Of a stretch of DNA of 32,000 bases, positions 5,247 to 26,051 are shown piece after piece. Source of the DNA: Candidatus Saccharimonadota bacterium (lineage in GTDB: Bacteria > Bacillota_I > Bacilli_A > Mycoplasmatales > Hepatoplasmataceae); the NCBI RefSeq assembly GCF_000582535.1, contig NZ_CP006932.1:300001-332000 (forward strand), given 5' to 3'. Each line of letters begins with the position of its first letter. Position 1 is the first letter of the stretch. The notes below the pieces were generated by a model. The model saw only the letters and a list, made by a program, of their open reading frames with translations, was not told where the DNA came from and did no database searches. A program made the translations under genes and the position numbers.

Positions 5247-5310
5247 TTATTAAAAAAATATTTTTTTTGCTTTAAAAATATGTATAATAATATCGAATTA
5301 TCTGTTAGCT

Positions 5311-5346
5311 AGTTAAAAAATTCATGAATACCATACAACTCAAAAC
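5311..5346 (+). repeat. Solitary degenerate copy of the CRISPR repeat, abutting the tracrRNA anti-repeat with no spacer
   Basis: AGTTAAAAAATTCATGAATACCATACAACTCAAAAC versus the array repeat GGGTTAAACAACTCATGAATACCAACTAACCAAAAC. Same orientation and same 36-nt length, a shared TCATGAATACCA core and a CAAAAC end, roughly 70 percent identity with one offsetting indel pair. Confidence 0.7.
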
Positions 5347-5500
5347 ATTTTAAACAACTCATGAATACCAACTAATCAAGATAATGGTTTAAAATAAAAC
5401 AATTTTTTTGTTTTATGGAATATCTAAGGGTACACAGGTAACCCTATTATATAATCCTCCTGTAATCAAAGCCTACTTTTTAAAGTAGGCTTTTTATTTT
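5347..5500 (+). ncRNA. tracrRNA: Predicted tracrRNA: anti-repeat 5350-5382, internal hairpins, intrinsic terminator at the 3' end
   Basis: Bases 5350-5382 (TTAAACAACTCATGAATACCAACTAATCAAGAT) match 33 nt of the plus-strand array repeat with 3 transition differences. Each difference would give a G-U wobble against a minus-strand crRNA repeat (GUUUUGGUUAGUUGG...). Downstream are hairpins ATAAAACAA/TTGTTTTAT and AGGGT/ACCCT, then GCCTAC/GTAGGC followed by TTTTTATTTT. A TGTATAAT box lies upstream at 5281-5288. Exact 5' and 3' ends are not determinable from sequence. Confidence 0.75.
5468..5500 (+). terminator. Rho-independent terminator closing the tracrRNA
   Basis: AAAGCCTACTTT / AAAGTAGGCTTT inverted repeat followed by the T-run TTTTTATTTT. 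Confidence 0.7.
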
Positions 5501-5730
5501 ATTAAAATACAAATAAAATTAAAAATTAATATATATTTACTATTTTTTGTATAAAAATATAAAATGTAATATATTTTTTAGAAATTAAAAGGCAATTTTT
5601 ATGAAAAAAGAACATTTTAAAATAAAAACTAATATATTAAATGATATTTTTAATAGTAAAATAGTAAATAAAATCGAAAATATTTTAAATTAATAAAAAA
5701 TAAACTGAAAATGATTATATAAGTAAATTT

Positions 5731-6816
5731 TTAATAAATATTATCAAGAAATTTTAATTTTTTAAATTCCTTATTAATTCCTTTTATTTCATTTAATCGA
5801 AAAAATAAAATATCTCTTAATTTTTCATTTTCACTTTTAAAACTATATGGTCCAAGATATTCCTTTTTTTCAAGATCTAAATCTAACAATAAATAACTTA
5901 ATTTATCTTTAATAAAATTTTCTTCAATTTTTTGATAATCTTTTTTTTCAGCTACCATTTTTAATTCTTCAATTTTTTGATTAAATTGATCTGATGTTTT
6001 AATTTGTTCTTTTTCAAAAATATAATCTGAAAGAAAATAATTTTTTAATAAAAATTCTTTATTTAAATAAAATCTTTCCAATTTATTTTTGTTTAAAAAT
6101 AATATTTCTTCGATCGATATTTTAAGATTACGAATAATAAGAGGATTTCTTGTAGTTAATAATACAAAATTATTTTCTTTCAATTTATTAATTAAAGTTG
6201 CAAATTCTTGCAATTTTTTTCCATTAAATGATGAATCTATACAATCAAAAATAAAGATTTTATTTTTTGTATTACTATCAATTAATAATTTAAGATATAG
6301 CATTAATTGTTCTGAACGAGAAAGTCTTTTTTCATCAATTTCATTTTGTTCTTGATCATAAATTGTCAATTTAAATAAAAGATTAATTAAATCAAAATCA
6401 TTTTTGAAATTAAAAATAGGTTCAATATAATAATCATTAATTTTTGAGTTAATAATATTTTTTATTTTATTTAAAATTAATTTTATTTCTTTTTCTTCTT
6501 GAATTTTTCTAATAAGATCAATATTATTTTCTTCTAAAAAATAAATTAGATTGTTAGTAAGAAAGCGAAAGAGATAAGATTTCTTTTGCAAATTTAATTC
6601 TTTTTTTAATTCTCATTCCTCATTTAATATTAAATAATCTCTTGTATCTTCATATTGAACATCGGAGAAAATATGATAAGTTTTTCTTTTTAAAAGCAAT
6701 TCAAAATTATTAACAAATATTGTTTTTCCACTATTATTTTCACCGAATATTAATAATATATTATTTTCACTTTTCACTCTTTGATTATTATAAAATTGAT
6801 TTAATATTATTTCCAT
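5731..6816 (-). CDS. csn2: Csn2-position protein: ABC-like P-loop NTPase, 361 aa (probable divergent Csn2)
   Basis: ORFs 6613-6816 and 5731-6591 are in the same frame and are joined by TGA (6613-6615) read as Trp. The ATG at 6816 lies 2 nt after the cas2 stop. Motifs: Walker A GENNSGKT, signature-like LSRSEQ, Walker-B-like IFIFDCID, and TTRNP. Assignment to Csn2 rests on its position after cas1-cas2, not on recognised sequence similarity. Confidence 0.5.
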
Positions 6817-6818
6817 TT

Positions 6819-7127
6819 TTAGATAATTAAAAAATCTTCATCATTTGTATAAGATTCTTGTAAACTCTTTCTTCCTTTTAATATTTCTATTTCGCTATAT
6901 TGTTTATTTGTTACAATAATTATTCTAATATCTCCTTTTTCTGGAAGGATTTGTTTAATTCTAATTTTTGTTCTTTTTACTCAATCATGATTATAGCAAG
7001 GTTTCATATATACAGATTCTTGAATCATAATAAAACCTAATTTAATTAAATTATTTCGAAATTTATTAAAATTTCTTTGATCATTTTTTGTAATTGTTGG
7101 TAAATCATAAAAAAGAAGAATATTCAT
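6819..7127 (-). CDS. cas2: CRISPR-associated endoribonuclease Cas2, 102 aa
   Basis: MNILLFYDLPTITKNDQRNFNKFRNNLIKLGFIMIQESVYMK... shows the typical Cas2 N-terminal beta-strand with Asp and the QxSVY motif. One internal TGA is present. The start lies 4 nt after the cas1 stop. Confidence 0.85.
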
Positions 7128-7131
7128 CTGT

Positions 7132-8109
7132 CTAAAACGGGATTCCCTGTAGTTCATTTTTTTCTTTTTCTCGCAAATTTAAGGGAAGATGAAGTTCAGG
7201 AAGCAATAAATTTTCTTTTTTATTTTCTAAAAAAGAAATAATTGATTTAACCATAATATCTATTGCATGCCTTACCTTTGTTACTTTTCCGTCAATTATA
7301 ACTTCAAGTGATAAAACCTTTATTAATCTTATTCTTATAATTAATTCAAGATGATCATTTTGAATTAATTCATTATTTTCATAAACTATTCAATCTATTA
7401 AAGGTCTAAAAGGTTCTATTAAATCATAAGTAAGATTAAAATAATTAAGTTGATCTTTATGTTTAAATCCAATTGCAGGGTTTAAACCAAATTTTACAAT
7501 AGAAGAAGAAATTCTACTTGCTAGAATCTTATATCCATAATTTAAAGCACCATTTATAGGATTATCATCTCTTCTTACAAAATAATGATATATTCCAAAT
7601 AATTTTTTGAAATAAAATTTAGCAGCAACAGCTTCCATATTCTTAGTATCACCTTGATTTACTTTTTTAAGATATATCTTCATTTTTTCAAGATCATCTT
7701 TTGATAAATTTATTTTATTTTTTAAATCTGTAAGTAAATTTTTTTGATTTATTATTTTCTGGACAATAATTTGCTTTCAAACTCTCTGTTTATCTCTTAA
7801 TGATAATTCTAATTGCATATTAAAATTCTTAAGAGGATTATGATGTCCGGAAAGATTAAGAATTAAAGAAGAAGGATCGTGCGATCTATTATTTATAATT
7901 ATTGGAATATTTTCTTTATTTAATTCAATAATTGCTGGAATTGAAATATTTGTTCTTGTATTATCAATTATTATTGTATCTATATCTTTTATGTAGAATT
8001 TTAATTTTTCTTGATCTCCAGTTACAATTAATGAGTTATTTTCGACCCGCATATTTTGGTCATTTTTTATATATATTGTTCTCCAACTCATATAATCAAA
8101 GATTAACAT
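7132..8109 (-). CDS. cas1: CRISPR-associated integrase Cas1 (type II), 325 aa; the true start may be the second ATG at 8091 (MSWRT...)
   Basis: ORFs 7777-8109 and 7390-7683 plus the tail down to TAG at 7132-7134 form one frame through TGA codons. Motifs match type II Cas1: [59 protein letters not shown]. Confidence 0.9.
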
Positions 8110-8288
8110 AAAATTAATTTATTTTAATAATGCGTTATAATTGCTTTGAGAATTGATATTTAAATTAAGATTTAATTGTTAATTCAAAAGGGGAATTTTA
8201 TGAATGATAAAAAACATAAATACCATATTAATTTAAGGATTATTAATTGATTTTAGTTAATTATAATAGTGTTTTAGATTTAGATTCA

Positions 8289-9920
<1,632 letters not shown>

Positions 9921-11999
9921 TTATTTTTTTTTATCTTGCTTTTCTTCTTTTTTATTTTCCTTTTTTTGTAATTTGCTTAATTTATCCATTTCTTTTATTT
10001 TTTCACTAATTATTTTTTTATTATTATTATATTTATTTTTGGTTTCTTTCAAATCTTTTTGATTTTCTTTTGTTTTTTTTATTTTTTTGATATTATCTTT
10101 TATTTCAAATTGTTCAACTTTTAATTTTGTTTCTTCTTTTAAAAGTTTTTCAAATTTTTTGTAATGTTTTTGTTTTTCTTCTATAAATGTATTTCTATAT
10201 TTATATCTCTCAATATTTTCTGTATTTTTTTCTAGATTTTCTTCTACATCTTTTAAATAATCATTTCAACCTTCTGTTGATAATTTTGCAAATCAATGTG
10301 ATTTTTTAGAAAAAAGAATTGTAAGAAAAAAAGTTCAAATAACAGTTCCGATCATAATTAAAATATAAACTATTCATGCCGCTCATTCTGCATTTAAAGA
10401 ACTATTATTTACATTTAAAAATCCTAAAATTCCTCCCATTCCAATTCCATTTGCAGTTATTCCGAATGCGACATCAAACATTGAAGCAAGGGCAGATCCA
10501 AGCATTGCTGCTACGAAAGGAAACATAAATCTAAGATTTACTCCATACATTGCTGGTTCTGTTACTCCAAGTCAACATGTAATAGCAGCGGCATTTCCCT
10601 GCTCCCGCATTTTGGCATCTTTTCGTAACATATAAACAACAGCAAATACAGCAGCTCCTTGAGCCATATTTGATAATGCAAGCATTGGAAAAATAAAATT
10701 TGCATTTGTTGTTGTTAATTGCAACATTACAGCATTAAGTGTTTGATGTAATCCTGTAATAACAAGTACAGGATAAAGTAATCCGAATAATGGTCCAAAG
10801 AAATATTTTGCAATAGGTTGCGTAAATGCTCATTCAAAACTAACGGATATTGCTCATCCAATAATTGCTCCAATTGGACCAATTATTCCAAGTGCAACAA
10901 TTTGTATTACAAGAATTGTAATAAAGGGTGGTCAAACATATCTTACAGAGGGAATTGTATGTCTTTCAATTAAATCATAAAATCAAACTCCAAATCAACC
11001 AACAAGTAGTGCTGGAATTATTTGACCAATATATGAAATTGCAAGAGGTCAATATGATGTAAAATAAGAAGCATCTAGGGCATCGATCGCTTGAAAAATT
11101 GTTTTTACTTCATATGAACTAGTTAATCCTGCTTGATTTAAAATATTAATCATTTCTTCTTTATTGGGATCATTTGGATCAATTCCAGTAAAATCTACAA
11201 GATTATGAATATTATTAAAAGCAAGAATTTGATCAGGAGAATATACTCCTCCTGTAACTATGTAATATTCTGTACCATTTGGAATTGCATCTAAATTAAT
11301 ATAAATATTATGAGATTGATCATAATAAAAAGATTGTATATATATATTTCCTAAGGCATCTGAAACACTATACATATTAACTAATGTTCCTGGAGCAATT
11401 AACATTATTCCAATTGTTATTCCTAAGGCTCCTGGTTTATTTGCTCTTTGAAACATTGATCAAACAACATGAACAGGTAAATATCAAAATACAGCTTGTG
11501 CTGGTAATCATAATCAATCATCTAAATTCTTAGCAAAATTACTATTATTAATTGCTGATCCACCCTCACCAGTTCAATCAAGTTCAAGTAAATTTCGAAA
11601 TGCAAGAATTAATCCTCCAGCTACAATAACAGGAATTAAAGGAATAAAAATTTCTGAAAATACTGACATTACTTTTTGAAATTTATTTGCTTGTTTTTTT
11701 GCTGCAATTTTTGTTTCTTCTTTTGTTGCATTTGTTATTTTTGCATATTTTAAAAATATTTTATAAAAATCACCAACATCGGTTCCAATTATTATTTGAA
11801 ATTGTCCAGATTGTGTAAAAGTTCCTTTTACAGAATCTAATTTATCAATTGCTTTAATATCGACTATTGTTGGATCCTTTAAAACAAGTCGTAATCTTGT
11901 TTGGCAATGAGAAGCCGATATTATATTATTTTCCCCTAATAATAAAACTATCTTTTGTGCATCAATATCATATTGTTTTTTCTTTTGATTTGATGGCAT
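9921..11999 (-). CDS. PTS EIIBC component (glucose/sucrose/trehalose family), 692 aa, with a Lys/Glu-rich C-terminal extension
   Basis: The N-terminal EIIB has the phospho-Cys motif ASHCQTRLRL. A polytopic EIIC follows, read through many TGA codons, then a low-complexity tail of about 110 aa (..KKFEKLLKEETKLKVEQFEIKDNIKKIKKTKENQKDLKE..KKEEKQDKKKNK). No EIIA domain is present. Confidence 0.8.
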
Positions 12000-12248
12000 A
12001 ATATTATTCTATAAATTCCCTATTTTTATTTTTTTTACACTATATAATTAAATATTATTAAATTTTTAAAAATAGAAACTTATTTTTTTAAAAATAAATA
12101 ATTTAAAAAAATAAGAAATTAAAAAGTTTAATAATAATATTATTATGTAGTTTATTATTTATATTTTTTTAAAAAGAAAAAAATTTATTTAATTTTAGAA
12201 ATTTAAAAGTAATATAATTTATATGAAAAATTAGGAGGATTAAAAGTA

Positions 12249-12977
12249 ATGGATTTAAATTTAGGAGGAATATTCCTATCAGAAATGTTAGGAACTTTCT
12301 TTTTGATATTAATAGGTTGTGGGGTAAACGCTAGTGTTAATCTTAAAAAAACCTATTCAAATAATTCTGGTTGAATTGTAATCAGTTTTGGATGAGGAAT
12401 GGGAGTTATGATTGGAGCTGCCGTTGCCTTTTATTCTGGGGGACATTTAAACCCTGCTGTTACATTAGCAATGTGAGCGGAAAGTACAATAGATACTGGA
12501 CAAGCTTTTGTATATTTTGCAGGAGAATTAGTTGGGGCATTTCTTGGTGCTTTATTAGTTGCTTTTTTATTTTGAGATCACTTCAAAGAAACAAAAGATC
12601 CAAAAGCAGTTGCTGGTACTTTTCACACTACACCAGCAATTCCAAGATGATATAGAAATCTTGCAACAGAAATGTTTGCAACATCTGCATTAGTTTTACC
12701 ATTGTTAGCACTTACTGAAGCAGGATGAGATACATTAATACTAGGACCTTTATTTGCTGGTTTATTAGTTTTGGGAATCGGATTAACTCTTGGAGGATTA
12801 ACTGGATATGCAATTAATCCAGCAAGAGACTTGATGCCAAGATTAGTTCATCAAATTGTTAAAATCCCAAATAAAGGAACAAGTAATTGACAATATTCAT
12901 GAGTTCCAATTATAGGACCACTTATGGGATCAATGCTTGCTGTAGCTTTTTATGAATTAATCTTAGTAGCAATTTAA
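12249..12977 (+). CDS. glpF: Glycerol uptake facilitator (aquaglyceroporin), 242 aa
   Basis: AGGAGGA ribosome-binding site 10 nt upstream. Two NPA boxes are present (GGHLNPAVT and YAINPARD). The standard-code ORF call here (12371-12655) is in the wrong frame. Confidence 0.9.
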
Positions 12978-13010
12978 TAAAAGTAAGAAAAGAAAAAGGA
13001 TAGATTTAGA

Positions 13011-14507
13011 ATGAACAAAAAATATATATTAGCATTAGATTCAGGAACAACATCAGCAAGAGCTGTTTTGTTTGATAAAAAAGCAAATGTTATGTCAATC
13101 GGGCAAAATGAATTTACACAATATTTTCCTGAACCGGGTTGAGTTGAACATGATGCAAATGAAATATATGCTAATCAAGTTGGAGTTGTAATTCAAGCAA
13201 TACAAAAAAATCACACAAAATTAAGTGAAATTGAAGCAATTGGAATTACAAATCAAAGAGAAACAGTTGTAATTTGAGATAAAAGAACAGGGATTCCTGT
13301 TCATCATGCAATTGTATGACAAGATAAAAGAACTGCGGATTATTGTGAAAAATTAGCAAATGATCCTAAAGTAATCAAAATAATTAAAGAAAAAACGGGT
13401 CTTGTATTAGACCCTTATTTTTCTGGAACAAAAATAAAATGATTACTAGATAATGTAAAAGGATTAAGAAATCGTGCTGAAAAAGGCGAAGTTTTAGCAG
13501 GAACAATTGATACTTGACTTATTTGAAAATTAACAAATGGTAAATCATTTGTTACTGATTATACAAATGCTTCAAGAACTTTATTATTTAATATTATTAA
13601 TTTAAAATGAGATCAAGAATTATTAAAATTATTTGATATTCCAGAAAAAATTTTACCAGAAGTTAAAAATTCTTCTGATAATTTTGGTACTACAGATATT
13701 GATGCTTTTAAAGGTATTCCAATATATTCATCTATAGGTGATCAACAATCATCTCTTTTTGGACATAGAAGTAAAATTGGAGAATTAAAAGGTACTTATG
13801 GAACAGGAGCATTTTTAATGTTAAATACTGGAGAAAAAGTTGTAAGATCAAAAAATGGATTACTTACAACAATTGCTTTAGGATTAAATGGAAAAGTAAC
13901 TTATGCTCTTGAGGGTTCAATTTATATTGCTGGAAATGCGCTTAAATGAATAAAAGATGAATTACATCTTATTCAAGAATATGAACAAATCGATTATTAC
14001 TTGAAAGATAATTATGATACAAAAGGAGTTACTGTTGTTCCTTATTTTGTTGGAGTAGGATCTCCTTATTGAAATACAAAAGCAAGAGGATTAATTACTG
14101 GAATTACAAGAGGAACAAATCGTGGTGATATTATAAGAGCAACTGCAGCTTCAATTGCTTTTCAAACATATGATATTTTTAAAGCTTTTCAAGAAGATTA
14201 CAATTCAAAAATTATAAAAATGTCTATTGATGGTGGTGTTTCAAAAACACAAAATTTAATGCAATTACAATCAAACATTTTAGAAGCAAAATTATATAAT
14301 CCAGAATCATCAGAAATTACTGCACTTGGTGCAGCTTTTCTTGCTGGATTAAAAGCAAAATTCTGAAAAGATCAAGCAGAAATTGATAAATTAATTAAAT
14401 TTAAAAAAATTTATAAACCAAATGCCAAAGTAAGTGAAAGTGAAAAAATTATCAAAAATTGAAAAGAATCAGTAAGATTAGCATTAGAATGAAATAAAAC
14501 AAAATAA
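13011..14507 (+). CDS. glpK: Glycerol kinase, 498 aa
   Basis: [62 protein letters not shown] and IDGG.. are classic FGGY/GlpK motifs. There are many in-frame TGA codons. Confidence 0.95.
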
Positions 14508-14517
14508 AGGAAAAATA

Positions 14518-15642
14518 ATGAGTGATACAAAATCATATGATGTAGCAATTATTGGTGGTGGAGTAATAGGTCTTACCATTGCAAAAGAATTTTTAGAAAA
14601 AAATATTAAGAATATTTGTCTTTTAGAAAAAAATCGCGATGTAATGTTAGAAACTTCCTCACATAATAGTGGAGTCATTCATAGTGGGTTTGATGCAACG
14701 CCCGGAACGTTAAAAGCAAAATTTAATGTAGAAGGCCGTCATCTTTTTGAGCAAAGATATTTAAAAAAAGATGCAAAATTTCATTGAGAAAATATTAATT
14801 CTTATATCTTGGCATTTGATGATGAAGATATTAAAGAATTAAATTTACTGTATGAGCAAGGAATTAAAAATGGTTTAAATCCTAAAAGTATGCAAATAAT
14901 TGATAATAAAGAAATTCTCAAAGTAAATCCGTATCTTAATAAAAAGATAATTAAAGCTTTATTAGTAAATACTTCTAAAATTATTGATGCACATCAATTT
15001 GGGAATTTTATTTTTGAAGAAGCTAAAAAATTAGGACTTAAGTATCATTTAAATTTTAAAGTAAATGATATTAAAAAAGAAAAAAATGAATGAGTTCTAA
15101 AATCTGAAAAAGACCAAATTATAAAGGCAAAATATATTATTAATGCAAGCGGAGTTTGATCAGAAGAAATTGCAAGACTTGTCGAAAAAAATCCTTTATT
15201 TAAAATTAAAACCAGAAGAGGACAATATCTTATTTTAGATCATGATCAGAGAAAATATACAACTTTTGATGTATTTTTTTTAACTCCATCTAAACATGGA
15301 AAAGGAGTAATAATCGCTCCTTTGTTAGATGGAAGAGTTCTTGTTGGTCCTAATGCAGAAGATAACATTCCAAAAAATGATATTCAAATAGTAACAGAAA
15401 AAGGTCTTAAACATGTAAGGAAAATAGGAAAGAAAATAAATCCTAATATTGATCTTGGTCGTGTTGTTTCTGTACTTGCTGGTTCTAGATCAATAAATGA
15501 ATTAACAAATGATTATTATATTGAAAAAAGTAAAGAAGTAGATAATTTCTTTCATGTAGCAGGAATTCAATCTCCAGGATTATCAAGTTCTCCTGCAATT
15601 GCTAGGTATGTATATAAAAGATACACAGAAGTAAAAAAGTAA
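14518..15642 (+). CDS. glpO: FAD-dependent glycerol-3-phosphate oxidase/dehydrogenase (mycoplasma GlpO/GlpD type), 374 aa
   Basis: ORFs 14518.., 14809.. and 15322.. share one frame. The N-terminal Rossmann FAD motif is YDVAIIGGGVIGLTIA. Its position after glpF-glpK and its short length match the mollicute GlpO type. Confidence 0.85.
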
Positions 15643-15662
15643 AAGAGTAAAAGAGTAAAAAA

Positions 15663-15689
15663 ATATAGGGAAATTCCTATATTTTTTTT
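15663..15689 (+). terminator. Rho-independent terminator after glpO
   Basis: ATATAGG-GAAATT-CCTATAT hairpin followed by a T7 run. Confidence 0.7.
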
Positions 15690-15776
15690 ATTTTAATAAT
15701 TTTGTAAAATTTACATATATAAATAAGAATAAAATAATAAATTAACTAATCTATAATAATGATAATAAAGGAAAAA

Positions 15777-16553
15777 ATGGAAAATAATAAAATTGAATTT
15801 TTTACATGAATTAGAAAAATTGAATTTATTAAATTAAAAAAACATTATGAGAATTACTATTCAAATATTATAAATGTTGATAATAATGAATTTTTATTAT
15901 TAAAAAGATATCTTAATGAAAATTTATTTACTGATTATTCTAAAGAAGATTTTGAAAAAATAAAAGAAAAATTTAAAAAAGACGAAATTTTTGATCCAAT
16001 AAAAAATATAAATAAAAATATCAATAAACAAAAAGAAACTTTCAAGCAAAAAATTTATGATGTTTTAATTAATATAGAAGATCATTTAAATCAATTTTCG
16101 AAAAAAAATTATAATAAATTAAGAAAGCATAAAATAATTTATTTTATTATTGCTCATGCAATAAATACAAATAAAAAGTATGCACAATGAAAAGAAGAAT
16201 ATGATATTTTTGCTTCTTTTATATCAAATAAAAAAAATTATGAAAAGATGACTTGATGTGCTTTTGAAAATGGACCAATTTTAAATAGTATCTATAATCC
16301 ATCACCAAATGAAGATAATGATTTATTTATTTTATATCAAAATGAAAAACAATTAATTGTTTTTGAAATGGCTTATTTTTTCTTAAAAAATTTTTCAACA
16401 ATCGAACTTATTGAAGAAAGCCATAAGACAAAACCTTGAATAGACAATTTTGAAAGATACAGTTATTACAAAAAAATTAAAAATAATGAAATAATTGAAT
16501 ATTTTAAAAATAATAAACCTTTTTTTATTAAATTAATAAATGGAAATAATTAA
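15777..16553 (+). CDS. Panacea/SocA (DUF4065) domain protein, 258 aa, candidate antitoxin
   Basis: The C-terminal half has the Panacea pattern: KIIYFIIAHAI.., W-CAFENGPILNSIY, ..TIELIEESHKTKPW. The N-terminal ~110 aa has no motif I recognise. Three in-frame TGA codons are present. Confidence 0.6.
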
Positions 16554-16908
16554 AATTAAATTAAATAATTTTATAAACAAGTATTTAGAAATTATTTTTA
16601 CTATTGTATGATTTCTTTTTCTTTTAATTTTAGTTATTTTAATAATTTATATGCAAATAGATACTAAAGATTTTTTTTCATATTTAATTTCATTTACAAT
16701 TGCTTGATTTGCAATATATCTTACAATAAAAATTGGTAAAAATAGCCAGAAAACATTAGATAATATAAACGAAACAGTAATAGAAATAAAAAATTTGAAT
16801 CTAGAAAAAGATCAAATAAATATTAAAAAAGAAAATCAAGTAATAAAACAAAATAGAATAAATAAAATCCAAAAGGAAAATGATGAATATGAAAATAAAT
16901 TAAAATAA
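16540..16908 (+). CDS. Small two-TM membrane protein with a charged coiled-coil tail, 122 aa, candidate toxin/effector
   Basis: The ATG at 16540 overlaps the upstream stop by 14 nt, which suggests translational coupling. There are two hydrophobic helices (IIFTIVWFLFLLILVILIIY and FFSYLISFTIAWFAIYLTI), then a tail ..EKDQINIKKENQVIKQNRINKIQKENDEYENKLK. Confidence 0.5.
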
Positions 16909-16928
16909 GAATCTCATGAGAGATTCTT
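16907..16928. terminator. Hairpin between the convergent small membrane gene and cas9 (possibly a bidirectional terminator)
   Basis: AAGAATCTC-ATGA-GAGATTCTT forms a 9-bp perfect stem, followed by a T-rich stretch. Confidence 0.5.
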
Positions 16929-16951
16929 ATTATTGGTATTTTTTATATAAA

Positions 16952-19900
16952 TTATTCTATTTTTCCTAATCTTGTAATATTTACAAGTTTTAAATCTTGT
17001 GCTTTAGATATTGAAATTCTTAATTTAATATTAAACATTTCTTTATATTTTTTTGGATTTGTATGTTGTGTTAAATTAGAAATTGGTGCACTAAATCTTT
17101 TTTCTAATGAATCTAAAGATTTATATGTATAAATAATTTCATCATTTGATAATTTAAATTGTGCATTTTTAAATAAAATTAAATTTATTTTTTCTTTTTG
17201 TTTTGCAATTTCAGCTATTTGATTACGATAAATTGGAATTAGTTTTTTATTTTGATCATATGTATATCCAATATACTTTGAAATATCTCAAAAATTACCT
17301 TTTTTATCTTTAATAAATGAATTTTTTAATTTTCCTGTTTTTTGATCTATTGCTTCTTTTTTAGAACTAGGATTTTGCTTTGCAAGTAAAGTTCCTCTTA
17401 TTCTTTTGTCTATTTTATAAGATACATAAGGATAATCTTTAATGTTTTTATTATTCAAGTTTGCTCATTCTGTTGCTTCAATAGTATCCAAAAATGCTGG
17501 AATTTTTTTATATTTAATTTCTTTTATATATTCGTTTGTATTTGAATCAAATGTTGTTGCTGGATATTTTTGATTTATTTGCTTTAATCTTACAGGAATT
17601 AAATTGTTAATTTTACTAGGAAGATTTTCAATTAAAGGACTTATTAAATTTAAAATATTTTGATCGGTAGTAAAATCTATTCTTTCTAATCTTTGATTAG
17701 TTTTAATTTTTTGATCAATTAAATTTATTAAATAATTAAATACTTGATTTAATTTATTGTTTAATTCTTTTGTACCATAAAAATAGACAAATCCACGATC
17801 TTTAAATCGATTATCAATTATTCTTTTTTGTTCAAATAATTTTTCTTTAATATTAAATGAATCTTTTTTATTTACATAATAGTTATAAAAATTAATAATT
17901 CTAACTATCAATTGATAAAACTCAATATGTTGCTCAGAAATCATATTAGAAAGAATTATTGCATCTACAGCATGATGAAAAGGAGAGATATCACGAGGTT
18001 TATTAATATCTCCTCATAAGCTTCCATATTTATAATTAGAAGGATTTAATCATAATCTTCTAAAATATGAAGTAATTCCTCCTTGAATTTGTAATATTTT
18101 GGGAGACTTAATATTTTCTTTTCTTTCTTTTTTTGCAAATTCTAATTTTAAATAATCAGTAATATATTTTGTAATATATCTTGTGTCATTAATATTTCTA
18201 GATTCAAATCCTGTTTCCTTTGATCGATCTAAATTCTCCATAAATAAATATGCTAATTTTACATTACTATTTATACTTTTTTCAATTTTATTTTTTCAAT
18301 TATTTAATTGTTTATTAGTAAAATTTTGTATTTTAAAAAAATCAAGTGGTGTTTTGTTACTTTTAAGAGCATTATTTTTTCTTGAAGTAACTATCTTATT
18401 ATTTTTAGTATCATCATTTACTAAAGAATAAGGAGCAATATGGTCAACTTGGTATTCATTATTTTTGTCTTCAATAAAGTTTTTTAAATAAATTTTTTCT
18501 TTAAAATCAACATCATATAAATCATATGCAAAATTTTCTTTTTTTGAAATTTGATCTAATTGTTGATCTTTTCAAATTAAATATTTATTAATGTTTTTAG
18601 AAGTTGGAATTAAATTATGTTCTTTTAATTTATTTTCAGATTCTTCTCTTATTTTTTGATTTTTATCTTGATTACTTCTTATTTTATTTCTTAATGTTTT
18701 TTCTGCATAAAGATCTTTTGCTACTTCAATAATTAATCCATCAAAATTATGTATTTTTAATAAATCTCTTACTACTAATCTAACTTGATTTATTGCTCGA
18801 AAAACTACAGAATTTTTTTGCATATCTTGATCTTTAATTGGAGAAAATAATTTTATTTCCTTTTCTTTTAATTTTTCTAATTTTTCTTCTGTATTTTTTT
18901 CTCTTATTTTATTTTGATATTCAAAAATTATCTCTCCTGTATCTAATTGATTTTTAAGAGCAGATAAGATAAATTTGCTTGATGTAGATAAAGTTTTATT
19001 TCCTTTTCCTATTCATTTGTTATTTTTTCTAATTCAATTATATCCATCATTTTGATCATTAAAAAATGAATCTATTTTTATCAATTCATTTTTTAATTTT
19101 TCTGGTGTTTTATTTTTAAATAAAACATTTGCAATTTTATTTATTTTACTATCTCTAATTGTATTTAAAAAATTTAGATCTATTTTAAGATTTTTTAAAA
19201 TGAATTCTTTATTTTCATTATTTTGTGCAAACGAATGTAAAAATAAATTACTATTAGCAAAACTAATTCCATCTAATTTAGGTAAATTTAAATTATGTTT
19301 TGAAAATATTTCTGTAATTATTTTACGATCAAATTTTAAATTTTTAAAATAATTATCAAATATTTCTCTTGTAATTATTTTTATTTTTTCTGAATTAATT
19401 TGTTTTTCATTTTTTAGTTTTGAAAATATCTTTCCTGTTTCATTTAGAATAAACGAAATATCATTTTCAATTGAAAAGCAAGATAATCTTTTTTGATCTT
19501 GAAAAAATTCACAATTTCCTAAATTTTCAAAAAATTGTTTGTAATAAAATTGTTTAGAATCTTTATTTAATTTTTCTTTTCAAATTTTTTTTACTTCTGG
19601 ATCTTTGGGTCCTGGACCATCTTCAAAATCTCGTTGTCTAAATATAATTTTTTTTAAATCTTCTTTTATATCACTTAATTTATCATTATATTCGATCTGT
19701 TTATTTAATAATGCATCAAATTCATTTTCATAATCTTCACGATTAAATAAAATTTGATTATCATTATATTTCTTAATTAATGTATTTTTTAATATGTTAA
19801 TTAATTCTTTTTCTGATTCATTTTTATGATCTATATTATATTTTTTCAATAAATTTTGTAAATTAATTATATTTATTTCTTTTTTGTTTTTGTCTAGAAA

Positions 19901-20539
19901 AATTTGTTCATTAAATTTACTTTCATTAAAAACTCTACTACGATAGTTAAATTTACTTAGATCTTTTGGATTAAAATTAAAAAAAGAATCTTCTGTAATA
20001 GCTTTAATTGGATATTTATATTTTTTTATTAATTCTTTACTTTTTTCGATGCTTTTTCTTGCATCTTTATTTTCATTTAAATTTGGAATAAGAAAACGAT
20101 TACTATATCCTCTTCTTTTTGCAATATTAATTAAAGCAATTAATAATTCTAAATTTGTTAATTTTTCTTCTAATCCTTTTTTTCTTAAAATAATTGAATT
20201 AAATTTATCATCTTTAAAATATTTTTTTCCTTCTTTATTAATTTTTAAAATGTGATTTTGGTAATCTTCTTTTTTTAATAATTTATGATTATAAAAAGTT
20301 TTTTTAAGATCATTTATTCTTATTTTTTTACGAGAATTTAATCTTCTTCCAGATCTAAATTGTCTTCTTTCGGAAGTTTTTGTATCTAAAGATTTACTAT
20401 CTTCGGGTGCATCTCATAATCTAACACCAAAATCTAATATATTTCAATTGTTTTTTTGATTATTATATTCTGAGATAGCCCATCCTAATGATGTAACTCC
20501 AATATCTAATGCTAAATATTTCTTATTTTCTAATTGCAT
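16952..20539 (-). CDS. cas9: Cas9 (type II effector nuclease), 1195 aa, with all catalytic motifs intact
   Basis: A single minus-strand frame links ORFs 19580-19849, 18572-18823, 18050-18241 and 17465-17944 through TGA=Trp. Motifs: RuvC-I YLALDIGVTSLGWAI, Arg-rich bridge helix SERRQFRSGRRLNSRKKIR, RuvC-II IIEVAKDL, HNH YQVDHIAPYS..NNKIVTSRKNNALKSNKTP, RuvC-III FHHAVDAIILS. AAAGGA ribosome-binding site before the ATG. Confidence 0.93.
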
Positions 20540-20593
20540 TATTATCCTTTTATATATTTAAATTTCTATTTAAATCTATTATATAAAAATTAT

Positions 20594-22939
20594 TGATTAA
20601 ACAACTCATGAATACCAACTAACCAAAACAACTTCATTATCATTATCTTTGTAAGGAAAGGGTTAAACAACTCATGAATACCAACTAACCAAAACCATCT
20701 GATCAATTATATGTAGTTATTATTGGGGTTAAACAACTCATGAATACCAACTAACCAAAACTAATCTTAATGCAATATTAAATATTATTTCGGGTTAAAC
20801 AACTCATGAATACCAACTAACCAAAACAACGTAAATTTAAGCTTAATTGAACTATTAGGGTTAAACAACTCATGAATACCAACTAACCAAAACATTGAAA
20901 AGGTCCATCGCAAATGTTAATATGGGTTAAACAACTCATGAATACCAACTAACCAAAACAACGTAAATTTAAGCTTAATTGAACTATTAGGGTTAAACAA
21001 CTCATGAATACCAACTAACCAAAACAGCAGGTTTAGGAAAAACAACTACTGCAAAGGGTTAAACAACTCATGAATACCAACTAACCAAAACATAATATGG
21101 TATAAAAAACTATCAAAAAATGGGTTAAACAACTCATGAATACCAACTAACCAAAACTATGTGGTTTTTTTAGTTCCTCACTACCTTGGGTTAAACAACT
21201 CATGAATACCAACTAACCAAAACTATTAAAATTTGCTAAATATTCGTCTGGTGGGGTTAAACAACTCATGAATACCAACTAACCAAAACAAAGTAAGAGG
21301 CATTTATACCAATGTAAATGGGTTAAACAACTCATGAATACCAACTAACCAAAACTTTCATATACATTTGATTACATCAGATATAGGGTTAAACAACTCA
21401 TGAATACCAACTAACCAAAACCCGTATAATTTCATTGGTCATAATCTTAAAGGGTTAAACAACTCATGAATACCAACTAACCAAAACTAGGTGGGTAAAG
21501 AAAAAGGAAAAAAAAAGGGTTAAACAACTCATGAATACCAACTAACCAAAACTGTCCCTTAATATTAAACGGTCATTTTTAAGGGTTAAACAACTCATGA
21601 ATACCAACTAACCAAAACTAATTTTGCTTTTGAACCTTATATTAAAACGGGTTAAACAACTCATGAATACCAACTAACCAAAACACATTGGAATAAATTC
21701 CTCTTATTTTTAATGGGTTAAACAACTCATGAATACCAACTAACCAAAACAAAACTGAAGTAATCATAATGGTGTCTGCTGGGTTAAACAACTCATGAAT
21801 ACCAACTAACCAAAACTATAGCAATGTAAATCCACTAATATTTTTAGGGTTAAACAACTCATGAATACCAACTAACCAAAACAACGTAGAATATGAGAAT
21901 TGCAGTTGATTTGGGTTAAACAACTCATGAATACCAACTAACCAAAACAATTAGTTTTTTCTTATATAGTTATATTATGGGTTAAACAACTCATGAATAC
22001 CAACTAACCAAAACTAAATGTTGTTAAAAACAACAAAAAAATAAGGGTTAAACAACTCATGAATACCAACTAACCAAAACATCGCACAGATGGACCCGAA
22101 TACCATTAAAGGGTTAAACAACTCATGAATACCAACTAACCAAAACATCGCACAGATGGACCCGAATACCATTAAAGGGTTAAACAACTCATGAATACCA
22201 ACTAACCAAAACCCCATAAATATTCAATTAACATTTTAATCTGGGTTAAACAACTCATGAATACCAACTAACCAAAACACTTTTGCATATAATGACTTAA
22301 TTAAAATAGGGTTAAACAACTCATGAATACCAACTAACCAAAACTAATTACTTCGCAACTTAATTTTTAAATAAGGGTTAAACAACTCATGAATACCAAC
22401 TAACCAAAACACTTTAATGGTTAATGCATTCATACCACTAGGGTTAAACAACTCATGAATACCAACTAACCAAAACCCTTAGACCATCTACTTTCGCTTA
22501 TAACGAGGGTTAAACAACTCATGAATACCAACTAACCAAAACACAGAAATATTATATTTATACGTTCCTTACGGGTTAAACAACTCATGAATACCAACTA
22601 ACCAAAACAACGTTAGAGGATTTTACTCAAATGTTAATGGGTTAAACAACTCATGAATACCAACTAACCAAAACACATTTACACTAACTGATGATTATAC
22701 TAATTGGGTTAAACAACTCATGAATACCAACTAACCAAAACATAGAGTTTATGTTTAACTGAGAAGACAATGGGTTAAACAACTCATGAATACCAACTAA
22801 CCAAAACATACCGCCTCAATTAGATTGATTGGTATATGGGTTAAACAACTCATGAATACCAACTAACCAAAACCTTCTTTTAACAGAATCAAATATTTTT
22901 TTTGGGTTAAACAACTCATGAATACCAACTAACCAAAAC
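20594..22939 (-). CRISPR. CRISPR array: 36 repeats of 36 nt and 35 spacers (29-31 nt, mostly 30)
   Basis: The plus-strand repeat is GGGTTAAACAACTCATGAATACCAACTAACCAAAAC with a 66-bp period. Its reverse complement starts with GTTTTGG, as in type II repeats. The repeat nearest cas9 (20594-20629) is degenerate (TGA in place of GGG). Minus-strand transcription is inferred from the tracrRNA orientation and the position of the degenerate terminal repeat. Confidence 0.97.
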
Positions 22940-23071
22940 ATTAAATTAATTATAATAAAAAAAAGCAAGTAAAATAGACGTTATTTTAAATATTTTAAAA
23001 CTTAAAATATTTATATTTTGCTTTTTATTTATATTAATAAATAATATTTTTTCAATATTTTTATTTTTCCT
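22940..23071 (-). promoter_or_regulatory. Putative CRISPR leader (AT-rich) with a -10-like TATAAT 9 nt before the first repeat
   Basis: A minus-strand TATAAT at 22954-22949 is followed by TAATTTAAT and then the first GTTTTGG repeat. No coding potential is visible. In DNA this AT-rich such boxes arise by chance. Confidence 0.3.
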
Positions 23072-23080
23072 TGTTATAAT
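23072..23080 (+). promoter_or_regulatory. Extended -10 box (TGTTATAAT) upstream of the first RCC1-like gene
   Basis: Matches the TGnTATAAT consensus, 87 nt upstream of the ATG at 23167. Confidence 0.35.
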
Positions 23081-23166
23081 TTTTTTATTAAAAATATTTT
23101 ATATTTTTGAGCGTAGAGGGTTTTAATAAAAATTAATAAATAAAAGGAATTAATATTCTTAAAATA

Positions 23167-25821
23167 ATGAAAAAAAATAAATTTTTCAATTTTAAAATAT
23201 TTACTTTTATTTCTGTTTTTTTAGTTTTTTTAAATATTGGTTATTTTAATTTAAATAACTATGATAAGAATTTTAAAAAAGAACAAATAAATAGTAATCA
23301 AATTGGAAATATTATTGAACAAGTAAATGGGCAACAAGTTTATTCGGAAGAATCTGATCAAATTTATCCAGCAACTTCTGGAGCTTTAATTGATCAAGAT
23401 TTGGATGGATTAGCAGATACTATCTATATGTGAGGAGATAATGAATATGGACAAATTGGAATTAATGATCAAGAAAATGACTTTATTACTACACCACAAA
23501 AATTAGATATTTTTAAATATGGTAGTGGTAGTTTTTATCAATTAGAAAGTAGTGGAACACATTCTGGTGTTGTTTTTGATTCAGATAATGATGGTAAAAG
23601 TGATCAACTTTATATGTGAGGAGATAATAGATATCAACAATTAGTAATAAGCAATAGTATTACTAATTATAGTTATGTTCCAATGTTAGTTGATTTTAAT
23701 TGAGAAGGAGATATTATATCATTAGAATTATCTTATGGATATTCCGGAGTTACAATTGATACAAATGATGATGGTTATGCTGAAAATCTTTACATTTGAG
23801 GAAATAACGAAGATGGACAAATTGGGAATGGTGAAAAAAATAATACAATTTTAGAACCAACTTTAATTACTCCAAAAGATCAAGATAATTGAGGCGGAAA
23901 TATTATTGATTTTGAAATAGATGGTCATCATAGTGCTGTTACAATTGATACTGATTATGATGGTTATGCTGATACATTATATTCATGAGGAGCAAATGAA
24001 TATGGACAAGTAGGAAATGGAGAAGAAAGAAATGATATCGTTTCCCCAACAATAATTACACCACAAAATGGATATTGAGAAGGAAATTTAATTGATCTTG
24101 AATTAGGTTCTTCTCATTCTGGGGTTACTGTTGATACTGATTTAAATGGTTATGCAGATACGCTTTATATGTGAGGAGATAATTATTTTAAACAATTGGG
24201 AAATATAAATTCTTATCAAAATGAATTTATACCAACTGTTTCTTATGGTCCTGAACAAAATTGAGGAGGAGATCTTGTTAATTTTTCTCTTTCCGGAATA
24301 AATAGTTCTATTGCAGTTGATACTAATAATGATCATTTAGGTGATGTTATTTATCTTTGGGGAGATAATAGTTATGGACAGATTGGAAATGGAACAATAG
24401 ATAATCAATTAGAAAAAGGAATTTCTACACCAACTAAACCTTTAAATCAAAATGGAGAAGAATTTGATTGAAATGGAAATGTAATAAATATTGATTTAGG
24501 AGGAAATTCAAGTTCTGCACTTATTGATAGTGATTATGATGGATTAGGGGATGAACTTTATCTCTGAGGAGATAATAGCTATGGACAATTAGGAAATAGC
24601 CAAATAGGTGTGAATATATTAACTCCTGATCAACAAAATTTTAAATTAGAAAATTTTAAATTAGAAAATTATGAAATTATTGATACAAGTAATTATGGAT
24701 TGGAAATAAATATTACATTAGAAGATAATAATGATTTTTTTAATAAAAGTAATATACCTACTTTAAAATTAAAAAACCAAGATCAAGGAAATATCTATAA
24801 TACTACTTATGATTTTTTAAATTCTGATCCCGAATCTGATTCATATTCTTATAAAATAAATAATATTAAAAGTGGACAAAAATATCAATGAGATGAAATT
24901 TTAATAAATGATCAAGGAGATGATTTTAATGAAGATTTAATATTTAATATAAATGAAATTGAAATTTTATCTGATTATAAAATAAAAGAAGCTTCGATTT
25001 CAGAAGAAAATATTACTGAATCAGATGCTTTAATTGATCTTGATTTTGAAAATAAAATGAATTTTAATATTAATAATTTTACAGAAGAGGAATTAAAAGT
25101 TAGAATCAATTATCAAGATCAAGAAAATCAATATATAAAAGAAACAATTATTAATCAAAATGAACAAATTTTATTAGATGGATTAAATTCAGAAAATCAA
25201 TATACAATAACAAGTATTGATTATTTTTATCAAAATGGAAATTATAAATATACTTTTAATCCAGTTAATTTAGTTTTTTGAACAGATACATTAATTCCGA
25301 CATTTTATCAAATTAATAATACTTTCGAAATAGAACAGATTAATAGTGATTCCTTTCAATTTAAAATTGGATTAAATAATGTTATTGTAAATGAAGATGG
25401 TTCATTAGCAAATATTGATAATGTTTATCTTATTGATTCCAATAATAATATTTATGAAGGTGATTATGTTGAAAATAGTTGAGAATCAGAAGTAAATAGT
25501 ATTAATAAAGATTCAACAGTAAATAGTAGTATAGAACAAGGATACGCTAGATTTAATGTAACACAATTATCAGAGAAAACAAATTATAATTTTATTGGAA
25601 TTAGTTTTCAAGAAGATGGATCATCTGCAAGTTTATTTCAAGAATCAATAAATATTCAAACTGATAATAATTTTAATTTTAAATTAATGATTTCGATTAT
25701 TTTAGTAATAATATTAGCAATTTTATTAACATTAATAATTATTTATTTTGCAAGAAAATATAAACAATTCAAAAAAGCAAAAGTTGTAGATCAAGATGAG
25801 ATAACAAAAGTAGCTAATTAA
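23167..25821 (+). CDS. Surface protein, 884 aa: N-terminal signal/anchor, 7-bladed RCC1-like beta-propeller, three repeated beta-rich modules, C-terminal TM anchor
   Basis: One frame runs through about 20 TGA codons. Seven blades each carry DxDxDGxxD-x-LY-x-WG-x-N-x-x-GQ-x-GNG (for example VDTDLNGYADTLYMWGDNYFKQLGN). The N-terminal hydrophobic segment is FKIFTFISVFLVFLNIGYF. The C-terminal TM is LMISIILVIILAILLTLIIIYF followed by a basic tail. Confidence 0.75.
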
Positions 25822-25825
25822 AAAG

Positions 25826-25855
25826 AAAAAGGATCCTAAATTTAGGATCCTTTTT
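25826..25855 (+). terminator. Rho-independent terminator after the first RCC1-like gene
   Basis: Perfect palindrome AAAAAGGATCCTAAA/TTTAGGATCCTTTTT. Confidence 0.75.
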
Positions 25856-26002
25856 GAATTTATGAAAATTAATATTTTTTAAGAGCGATGTAAATAAAAA
25901 AGAAGATAAAATTTTTTATTTAAGTTTTTAATTAAGATATCTCTTAGCATCAATTAAAATATATTTATAAATTTCTTTTATTCTCAAAAATTAAATTTTA
26001 CA

Positions 26003-26011
26003 TGCTATAAT
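26003..26011 (+). promoter_or_regulatory. Extended -10 box (TGCTATAAT) upstream of the second RCC1-like gene
   Basis: Exact match to the TGnTATAAT consensus, 41 nt upstream of the ATG at 26052. Confidence 0.4.
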
Positions 26012-26051
26012 TAATTTATTAATTATAGTAATTGAATTGAGTTTATAAATT

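Follow-up and report, generated by a model that had tools for sequence, protein, structure and literature searches.

How should a Cas9 system be read when its effector and its adaptation genes lie kilobases apart on the chromosome? The question is raised by the CRISPR-Cas locus of Candidatus Hepatoplasma crinochetorum Av, which we analysed in a window of 32,000 nucleotides (genome positions 300001-332000). The split itself has been published: Leclercq 2014 (PMC3942034) placed an array of 35 spacers and 36-bp repeats at 320,594-322,939, reported cas1/cas2 to be separated from cas9 by 7 genes, and described cas9 as being in reverse orientation to the array. Published views of the locus conflict, since it has been called 'probably inactivated' (Leclercq 2014, PMC3942034), 'incomplete' in structure (Ipoutcha 2019, PMC6882279) and 'likely intact' (PMC10928387). 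The first two views favour a decaying, non-functional remnant, in which the rearrangement was tolerated as the system was already inactive. Tests of selection, spacer turnover and covariation are absent from all three papers.

In ORF calling, table 11 breaks up every gene, and code 4 (TGA = Trp) was used instead; read in this way, all cas ORFs are intact. The initial annotation had described an array, cas9, a gap of 8842 bp, cas1-cas2 with a fourth gene, and an antisense tracrRNA, and each of these was found where it had been placed. On the minus strand, leader, array and cas9 make up the interference half. The adaptation half consists of cas1-cas2 and a csn2-like gene, with the tracrRNA antisense directly downstream. 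Between the cas9 stop and the cas1 start lie 8842 bp of non-cas DNA. The locus is physically bipartite, its modules being parted by glycerol/trehalose utilisation genes, and we consider it quite likely that it is a working Cas9 system.

The cas genes have the domains and clade membership of a type II system. Cas9 (16952-20539, minus strand, 1195 aa) scores 369 bits against TIGR01865 (NCBIfam cut-off 100) and matches PF13395 (HNH_4), PF18541 (RuvC_III) and, weakly, a bridge-helix model, so that both the RuvC-like and the HNH nuclease domains are present. Its identity is 93% to the Cas9 of strain Tokyo2021 and 65% to that of Ca. H. scabrum. Cas1 (7132-8109, minus strand) scores 272.5 bits against TIGR03639 (cas1_NMENI; cut-off 120) and Cas2 (6819-7157, minus strand) 78.6 bits against TIGR01573 (cut-off 24.5), with a PF09827 match; both belong to the type II clade. 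The likely true start of cas1 is at 8091, giving 319 aa as in its homologs, and that of cas2 gives 102 aa (6819-7127), the length annotated in relatives.

The fourth gene (5731-6816, minus strand) encodes a 361-aa P-loop ATPase of ABC/SMC type with an intact Walker A motif (GENNSGKT). It had been labelled csn2 in the initial annotation. A gene after cas2 is indeed there, and in relatives its counterpart always directly follows cas2; the label fares less well, as the protein matched no Csn2 model of Pfam or NCBIfam and gave only weak SMC_N/RecN matches. The profile of its family matches PtuA, ABC, SMC and Rad50 ATPases and no Csn2 chain. In a Foldseek search with a low-confidence model (pLDDT 48.6) of a close homolog folded with three sequences only, the Csn2 chains 3s5u_H and 9hp8_O ranked 4 and 14 among ABC ATPases, and all TM-scores were below 0.55. 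The gene has been identified as a Csn2 homolog by HHpred (Kawato 2024, PMC10928387). The P-loop is kept in Hepatoplasma and lost in Tyloplasma, and the protein may stand midway between canonical Csn2 and active ATPases of the ABC type.

The array (20594-22939, minus strand; repeat GTTTTGGTTAGTTGGTATTCATGAGTTGTTTAACCC) has regular repeats and unique spacers, as in type II systems, with its trailer end adjoining cas9. It contains 35 spacers of 29-31 nt, with two spacer duplications, and 36 repeats of 36 nt, of which 35 are identical and one, the terminal repeat beside cas9 (20594-20629), is degenerate. The leader (22940-23166, minus strand) has a conserved core of a T-run and TATAAT (22949-22954), located 9 nt ahead of the first repeat. 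An 18-nt leader sequence, CTTTTTTTTATTATAATT, is common to H. vulgare, and in H. scabrum and Tyloplasma, too, the core motif stands before the first repeat. In all species the repeats begin GTTTTGG on the cas9 strand, and the degenerate repeat always stands at the array end distal to the leader core. This polarity places the array and cas9 on the same strand, unlike the reverse orientation given by Leclercq 2014. We also considered whether the array had been moved upstream of cas9 by excision and re-integration, its repeats recombining with the repeat units associated with the tracrRNA. This model was dropped because the solo repeat downstream of cas9 and the loss of the leader that it predicts are both absent.

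The predicted tracrRNA (5347-5500, plus strand) has an anti-repeat, a 3' scaffold and a terminator, the composition expected in type II. The anti-repeat (5347-5382) and the repeat form an ungapped duplex with 33 of 36 positions paired and an energy of -47 kcal/mol. The conserved scaffold (CAAGATAATGG..., with GGGTACACAGGTAACCC at 5428-5444) is followed by a terminator hairpin (5468-5493) and a T-run, the hairpin being found in a scan that returned 3 terminator-like sites against 0.3 expected. The fold has a z-score of -4.2. Across five species the scaffold stems are 100% paired and co-vary, the pair 58-87 occurring as AU, UA, CG and GC. A tracrRNA with a 33-bp duplex and no bulge had already been predicted for Av (Ipoutcha 2019, PMC6882279); no Rfam family matched within the window. 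Upstream lies a second anti-repeat-like unit, unit B (5310-5345, plus strand), in which 28 of 36 positions can pair with the repeat. Its equivalent is found in all five lineages and tracks the repeat of its own species (28-34 of 36). A candidate -10 element, TATAAT, is read at 5283-5288 (plus strand) and occurs at the equivalent place in H. scabrum, H. vulgare, Tyloplasma and the SnakePit MAG. Scans for sigma-70 promoters were at or below shuffle background and are uninformative in this AT-rich DNA, so the putative promoters are placed only by cross-species conservation of TATAAT.

The DNA between the modules holds a treC-like gene, a PTS EIIBC gene, glpF, glpK, a glpO-like gene and two hypothetical ORFs. 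In its first part (8289-11999, minus strand), the code-4 ORFs have orthologs with PF00128 and PF00367/PF02378 and are syntenic with H. scabrum, to which their amino-acid identity is 72-85%. The second part (12249-15642, plus strand) comprises glpF (12249-12977), glpK (13011-14507) and a glpO-like FAD oxidase gene (14518-15642), whose orthologs carry PF00230, PF00370/PF02782 and PF01266 and whose products are 75-83% identical to those of H. scabrum. The two hypothetical ORFs (15759-16908, plus strand; 264 aa and 122 aa, the latter with predicted membrane segments) are specific to H. crinochetorum, being present in Tokyo2021 and in the metagenome contig L005 and absent from H. scabrum. They had been taken for a Panacea pair, a name that is not supported. 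Neither has a match to PF13274 (SocA_Panacea) or any other Pfam family even at E<=10, nor to an NCBIfam family, and the only trace is a marginal BLASTP match to an H. vulgare PF13274 protein (E=0.009, 25% identity over 72 aa). We therefore rejected the reading as a Panacea toxin-antitoxin pair as unsupported, since no match to the Panacea/DUF4065 domain was seen and the 122-aa partner could be assigned to no family.

Repeat arrays often break or mis-join assemblies, and the initial annotation had named a contig join inside the region as a finding that would undo its reading. The order cas9, then glpO-glpK-glpF, PTS and treC, then cas1-cas2-csn2-like gene also occurs in Tokyo2021 (a complete MAG from ONT and Illumina data), in H. 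scabrum and in the unrelated metagenome contigs L005 and L006. Contig L005 ends near the expected position of cas9 and the array, as a mis-join in this region might suggest. However, both junctions, cas9 to cargo and cargo to cas1, are reproduced in Av, Tokyo2021 and H. scabrum, and the junction from the cargo to cas1-cas2, the csn2-like gene and the tracrRNA is present on L005 and L006. An assembly artefact is thus exceedingly improbable. Because the split is shared by four independent assemblies and Ca. H. scabrum, it is old and not an artefact. From these sequence comparisons, it predates the divergence of H. crinochetorum and H. scabrum and is maintained under selection.

The separation extends across the family. 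In every Hepatoplasmataceae locus examined, cas9 adjoins the array and is separated from the cas1-cas2-csn2-like unit, which in most cases has the tracrRNA with it. The synteny check suggested by the initial annotation thus finds cas9 and cas1 set apart throughout. H. scabrum has the layout of Av minus the two hypothetical ORFs. In H. vulgare, tracrRNA-cas9-array is followed by about 7.7 kb of different sugar genes and then by cas1-X-cas2-csn2-like gene, and in Tyloplasma the order is cas9, an array of about 16.6 kb, one gene, cas1-cas2-csn2-like gene, one gene and the tracrRNA. As in Av, cas9 and the array are adjacent on the same strand in H. scabrum, H. vulgare, Ca. Tyloplasma litorale and the SnakePit MAG, and the family's loci share a homologous tracrRNA scaffold with two tandem anti-repeat units. 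The array and tracrRNA had been described as being in swapped positions; this holds only relative to S. pyogenes, since within Hepatoplasmataceae the array usually adjoins cas9 and the tracrRNA usually lies downstream of the csn2-like gene.

Like the II-A systems of S. pyogenes SF370 and S. thermophilus CRISPR3, the Av locus has a Cas9 with HNH and RuvC domains, type II Cas1 and Cas2, and a fourth gene that follows cas2. Its 36-nt repeat likewise has the form GTTTT..., its spacers measure about 30 nt, and its tracrRNA comprises an anti-repeat, a nexus-like element and a terminator. The Av locus differs in that no contiguous cas9-cas1-cas2-csn2 operon with a downstream array is found: the array is upstream of cas9, not downstream of csn2, and the tracrRNA follows the fourth gene instead of preceding cas9. 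The repeat:anti-repeat duplex is bulge-free, and the fourth protein retains its P-loop and lacks a Csn2 model match. The II-A loci of M. gallisepticum, M. mobile and M. synoviae resemble Av in their code-4 cas genes, in a variable tracrRNA position and in a fourth gene without obvious Csn2 sequence similarity (Chylinski 2013; Ipoutcha 2019, PMC6882279). Unlike Av, with its intervening non-cas genes and its array and tracrRNA elsewhere, they are contiguous, usually as cas9-tracrRNA-cas1-cas2-(fourth gene)-array. The non-contiguous layout is a feature of architecture, not of mechanism.

Is the system, then, a remnant? Strain Ps of H. crinochetorum is reportedly without any CRISPR-Cas (PMC4536667), so the system is dispensable. 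This, the missing match to a canonical Csn2 family and the lack of protospacer matches fit decay. The whole Av array gave only chance matches to GenBank phages (E 0.2-0.7), two spacer cores had 0 matches in IMG/VR, and the target core common to spacer 17 of Av and spacer 11 of Tokyo2021 had 0 matches in JGI metagenomes; as none of these searches found anything credible, no PAM was derived. Among the host loci compared, no spacer had a full-length self match. However, three genomes have intact ORFs for all four cas genes, no frameshift being seen, and between Av and H. scabrum dN/dS is 0.32 for cas9, 0.22 for cas1, 0.12 for cas2 and 0.25 for the csn2-like gene, near the 0.17-0.22 of flanking housekeeping genes. 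These values indicate that all four genes are under purifying selection similar to that on their neighbours, and the csn2-like gene itself is conserved.

The spacers and the repeats also speak against decay. Av (35 spacers), Tokyo2021 (25) and H. scabrum (64) have no spacer in common, although the repeats of Av and Tokyo2021 are identical and the dS of neighbouring genes between these strains is only 0.03-0.07. The same target is matched by spacer 17 of Av and spacer 11 of Tokyo2021, which overlap at 24/25 nt with a 5-nt offset, and this points to independent acquisitions. Whole-array replacement through recombination could mimic such turnover. In four species the repeat and anti-repeat of the same genome pair at 33-34 of 36 positions (-44 to -48 kcal/mol), whereas cross-genus pairings are weaker (-12 to -30 kcal/mol), and a change at position 9 of the H. 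scabrum repeat is mirrored in its anti-repeat. With these compensatory changes and the conserved leader core, a decaying remnant is unlikely. The initial annotation had favoured a working system that was split by rearrangement of the chromosome, as opposed to a decaying locus or an artefact, and the comparative sequence evidence supports this. Purifying selection, spacer turnover, repeat/anti-repeat co-variation and the same split in relatives together suggest that the split system is conserved and probably active rather than dead.

The two modules appear to be separate transcription units, because terminators follow both cas9 and the tracrRNA. A bidirectional terminator hairpin with a 12-bp stem (16904-16931), called on both strands, lies between the 3' end of cas9 and the 122-aa ORF. 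Between the array and cas9 the terminator scan found none, and the 54-nt junction (20540-20593, minus strand) carries TATAAT and an AAAGGA ribosome-binding site, both kept in Tokyo2021, where a 99-aa ORF parts the array from cas9. Transcriptional independence would allow only one half to work, for example interference or regulation by Cas9, array and tracrRNA on a frozen array with another role for cas1-cas2 and the csn2-like gene, or the reverse. The dS of cas9, which is 3-5 times that of its neighbours between strains, suggests a separate evolutionary history, and the csn2-like protein keeps its Walker A motif, unlike canonical Csn2. However, the complete difference in spacers between strains shows that the arrays are not frozen, purifying selection is similar on both modules, and covariation with the repeat persists in the tracrRNA, which Cas9 needs and which sits with the adaptation module. 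We regard a half-working locus as very unlikely.

If both halves work, expression and interference can be sketched by analogy with characterised type II-A systems. The array would be transcribed from the T-run/TATAAT leader toward cas9. The tracrRNA, encoded 11-15 kb away, would diffuse and pair along 33 bp of each repeat, and RNase III and Cas9 would process the duplex. Transcription of cas9, driven by a promoter of its own or continuing from the array, would end at the cas9 terminator, and Cas9 would then carry out interference with the dual RNA. The comparative data suggest that Cas1-Cas2 and the csn2-like protein act in trans, integrating spacers at the leader 13-15 kb off. None of these components needs to be physically linked to the others, since each works through a diffusible product or on a DNA site.

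In conclusion, the Av locus does not amount to a novel kind of system, and its architecture has been described before: the split since 2014, the tracrRNA since 2019 and the Csn2 homolog since 2024. Added here are the same split in relatives, purifying selection, spacer turnover and repeat/anti-repeat co-variation, which correct the first published reading of the Av genome. The compact (1195 aa), AT-rich, code-4 Cas9 with its bulge-free 33-bp guide duplex is of modest practical interest. In Hepatoplasmataceae, the interference and adaptation units may as a rule stay functional while lineage-specific sugar-metabolism cargo inserts between them, and the two tandem anti-repeats of the tracrRNA precursor may have a regulatory or processing role undescribed in other Cas9 systems; taken jointly with an intermediate fourth protein, these proposals are possible but doubtful. 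The locus represents a natural Cas9 system in which the effector and array, the adaptation genes and the tracrRNA are unlinked and which apparently has kept working across speciation, as would be expected if every component acts in trans.

The region has a GC content of about 20% and resembles gene debris under the bacterial genetic code, but intact ORFs result when code 4 (TGA = Trp) is used. These ORFs coincide with the elements of the initial annotation, and model scores, all far over the curated cut-offs, support the identities of cas9 (16952-20539, minus strand; TIGR01865, 369 bits), cas1 (7132-8109; type II Cas1 model, 272 bits) and cas2 (6819-7157; 79 bits). The nearest Cas9 relative is from Candidatus Hepatoplasma crinochetorum (93% identity). 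The symbiont with this locus is carried in the hepatopancreas of Armadillidium vulgare. The CRISPR array (20594-22939) consists of 36-nt repeats, 35 identical and one degenerate at the cas9-proximal end, and 35 spacers of 29-31 nt, which include two duplicated pairs. The anti-repeat of the tracrRNA, which pairs with the repeat, is at 5347-5382 on the plus strand, and a strong hairpin with a T-run is found 3' of it (5468-5493, plus strand). The separation of cas9 from cas1-cas2 was found to be 8842 bp, as proposed initially, and it contains genes for a treC-like glucosidase, PTS EIIBC, glpF, glpK and a glpO-like oxidase together with two hypothetical ORFs. A "Panacea pair" had been named there; this label is not supported, as the 264-aa and 122-aa ORFs have no Pfam match at E<=10 and the sole alignment touching that reading is marginal, over an NGP motif.

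Other ORFs lie around the locus. A 30-aa ORF lies at 5602-5694 (plus strand), past the tracrRNA terminator and before the 3' end of the csn2-like gene; two metagenome contigs have it annotated, and in H. scabrum the intergenic region is shorter and lacks it. A 361-aa ORF (2110-3195, plus strand) between dnaE and a P-type ATPase gene weakly matches an OLD-like TOPRIM domain (E=1.4e-4, just under the Pfam cut-off), is kept in H. scabrum at 69% identity, and may encode a defence-related nuclease. Next to the leader end of the array are two paralogous ORFs of large size (884 and 658 aa; 23167-28028, plus strand) with RCC1/WD40_RLD-like repeats and N-terminal signal-like segments. They are kept in Tokyo2021 as well as H. 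scabrum and probably encode surface proteins.

The order array, cas9, glpO-glpK-glpF on the other strand, PTS-treC, cas1-cas2-361-aa gene and antisense tracrRNA is also present in H. crinochetorum Tokyo2021 (ONT+Illumina) and in Ca. H. scabrum, whose Cas9 is merely 65% identical, and its cargo-to-tracrRNA portion recurs on two unrelated metagenome contigs. Since the split order is found in independent assemblies, an assembly artefact, which the initial annotation had considered, is excluded as its source. Judging from this gene order, the rearrangement is older than the split between H. crinochetorum and H. scabrum as species. H. scabrum does not have the 264-aa and 122-aa ORFs, so the H. crinochetorum lineage acquired this pair at a later time. 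H. crinochetorum strain Ps is reported to lack CRISPR.

Layouts in the family Hepatoplasmataceae were taken from the cas1-centred loci of the genome collection (code-4 annotation) and from cas9-centred loci. In cas strand order, Tyloplasma litorale has cas9, an array of about 16.6 kb, one gene, cas1-cas2-csn2-like, one gene and tracrRNA, and H. vulgare has tracrRNA, cas9, array, about 7.7 kb of ROK, rpiB-lacAB and aldolase genes, cas1, one gene, cas2 and the csn2-like gene. The SnakePit shrimp MAG has cas1-cas2-csn2-like-tracrRNA without cas9 or an array within 10 kb upstream, and in the GLR43 MAG the array is immediately upstream of cas1. In this family, cas9 always adjoins the array, cas1-cas2-csn2-like is always apart from cas9 (by the array, other genes, or both), and tracrRNA usually follows the csn2-like gene. 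The "swapped positions" of array and tracrRNA described initially hold relative to S. pyogenes but not within Hepatoplasmataceae, where this tracrRNA placement, and cas9 beside the array, are usual. H. crinochetorum and H. scabrum differ from the rest of the family in that the array is upstream, not downstream, of cas9 and the cargo is glp/PTS/treC. The Tyloplasma litorale array (L007 13413 to L012 7907; record 457838-474424), directly after cas9, has about 250 repeats, an unusual size for a genome of 0.6 Mb.

No transposase or integrase was found in the cas9-cas1 interval among the code-4 ORFs and ortholog annotation, in agreement with the initial proposal that the split arose by rearrangement and not by insertion of a mobile element. 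However, the cargo sets differ between lineages, a hint that metabolic islands may have entered repeatedly at this site between the CRISPR modules. In both lineages the cargo consists of carbohydrate-utilisation genes, for glycerol/trehalose in the window (8289-15642) and for ROK kinase, rpiB/lacAB and aldolase in H. vulgare (L009 2330-8830). Extra pairs of degenerate repeat-like units within the array-cas1 cargo of H. vulgare (L003 16774-16854 and 21279-21326) may be remnants of an older array into which, or next to which, the cargo was inserted.

In H. crinochetorum, H. scabrum, H. vulgare and Tyloplasma litorale, the repeat pairs with its own anti-repeat without gaps (33-34/36 paired, -44 to -48 kcal/mol), whereas pairing with the tracrRNA of the other genus is far weaker (-12 to -30 kcal/mol). 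A substitution at position 9 of the H. scabrum repeat is matched by a change in its anti-repeat. The tracrRNA scaffold is conserved and shows compensatory changes: both of its interleaved 5-bp stems are paired in 100% of cells, and one scaffold pair is A-U, U-A, C-G or G-C across five species. This covariation, in five sequences only, is supportive of constraint but not conclusive. The stems (GGGU/ACCC plus one co-varying pair, and NCAGG/CCUGN') interleave at 5428-5475 on the plus strand (alignment A2 columns 51-87). So arranged, they would give either an H-type pseudoknot or two folds that exclude each other, around the nexus-like element. All tracrRNA loci of Hepatoplasmataceae also carry, 1-14 nt 5' of the functional anti-repeat, another anti-repeat-like unit (window 5310-5345, plus strand; L004 7231-7266; L003 9815-9850; L012 14805-14840; L011 about 12470-12500). 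It pairs with the repeat of its own species at 28-34/36 positions, and the two change together in evolution. This unit could be left over from the origin of tracrRNA out of neighbouring repeats, or it could serve as a second pairing site within a long precursor.

Leclercq et al. 2014 (PMC3942034) described cas9 as reverse-oriented relative to the array. However, GTTTTGG opens the repeats of all species when they are read on the cas9 strand, and the conserved leader core and the degenerate terminal repeat are always at opposite ends of the array. In addition, the way in which the tracrRNA scaffold and terminator are oriented requires transcription of crRNA from the cas9 strand. This evidence puts the array and cas9 on the same strand. 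A junction scan found no terminator between the array and cas9; the 54-nt junction carries a conserved TATAAT and a ribosome-binding site, and a bidirectional terminator is located at the cas9 end (16904-16931). From the terminators and this junction, the two modules are probably separate transcription units, in line with the uncoupling suggested initially. The interval between array trailer and cas9 contains a 99-aa ORF in Tokyo2021 (L001 9564-10000) and 113-aa and 54-aa ORFs in H. scabrum (L002 9234-10000), and is only 54 nt in strain Av (window 20540-20593), which points to a deletion in Av sparing the TATAAT and ribosome-binding site of cas9.

The dN/dS values between Av and H. scabrum (Nei-Gojobori, code 4) were 0.32 for cas9, 0.22 for cas1, 0.12 for cas2 and 0.25 for the fourth gene, and 0.17-0.22 for neighbouring housekeeping genes. 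No frameshifts were seen in the cas genes in this comparison, consistent with the view that they are intact. Av, Tokyo2021 and H. scabrum have 35, 25 and 64 spacers, respectively (124 in total), none in common, although the repeats of Av and Tokyo2021 are identical and the dS of their neighbouring genes is just 0.03-0.07. Spacer 17 of Av agrees with spacer 11 of Tokyo at 24/25 nt with a 5-nt offset, which would be the pattern expected of independent acquisitions from related invaders. The leader core, a T-run and TATAAT, is 8-16 nt ahead of the first repeat in 4/4 species. The cas9 dS between Av and Tokyo2021 is 0.176 (window 16952-20539 vs L001 10001-13585) against 0.03-0.07 for neighbours including cas1, and suggests allele exchange or recombination confined to cas9.

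The fourth gene, which encodes 361 aa after cas2 (5731-6816, minus strand), had no Csn2 family match in family model searches. A ten-member family profile gave weak ABC, SMC, Rad50 and PtuA ATPase matches and matched no solved Csn2. The homolog model from three sequences was poor (pLDDT 48.6), and Foldseek on it returned the Csn2 chains 3s5u_H and 9hp8_O alongside many domains of ABC ATPases, with every TM-score < 0.55. Walker A (GENNSGKT) is kept in the Hepatoplasma proteins and lost in the Tyloplasma and SnakePit homologs. The label "csn2-like" is reasonable by position and the published HHpred result; Csn2-family membership, and with it the assignment of the locus to subtype II-A, is provisional.

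All three features of this locus (split, tracrRNA and fourth gene) had been published before, so that our finding is a rediscovery. Leclercq et al. 2014 placed the array at genome 320,594-322,939, exactly our coordinates plus 300,000, with 35 spacers and 36-bp repeats; they reported seven metabolic genes between cas1/cas2 and cas9, did not find csn2 and judged the system probably inactivated. Ipoutcha et al. 2019 (PMC6882279) classed the locus as "incomplete" and included the H. crinochetorum tracrRNA in a supplementary alignment and table, with a bulge-free 33-bp duplex. Kawato et al. 2024 (PMC10928387) identified the gene after cas2 as a Csn2 homolog by HHpred and considered the system likely intact. 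Chylinski et al. 2013 described wide variation of tracrRNA position among type II loci and Mycoplasma loci with a fourth gene unlike known Csn2. This study adds to the literature evidence for function (selection, spacer turnover and covariation), a corrected array polarity, the modular layout across Hepatoplasmataceae and a conserved tandem second anti-repeat. The working split system proposed in the initial annotation is well supported by four lines of sequence evidence, namely selection, spacer turnover, tracrRNA constraint through covariation, and leader conservation. Its parts are trans-acting, and mechanistically their linkage is not required.
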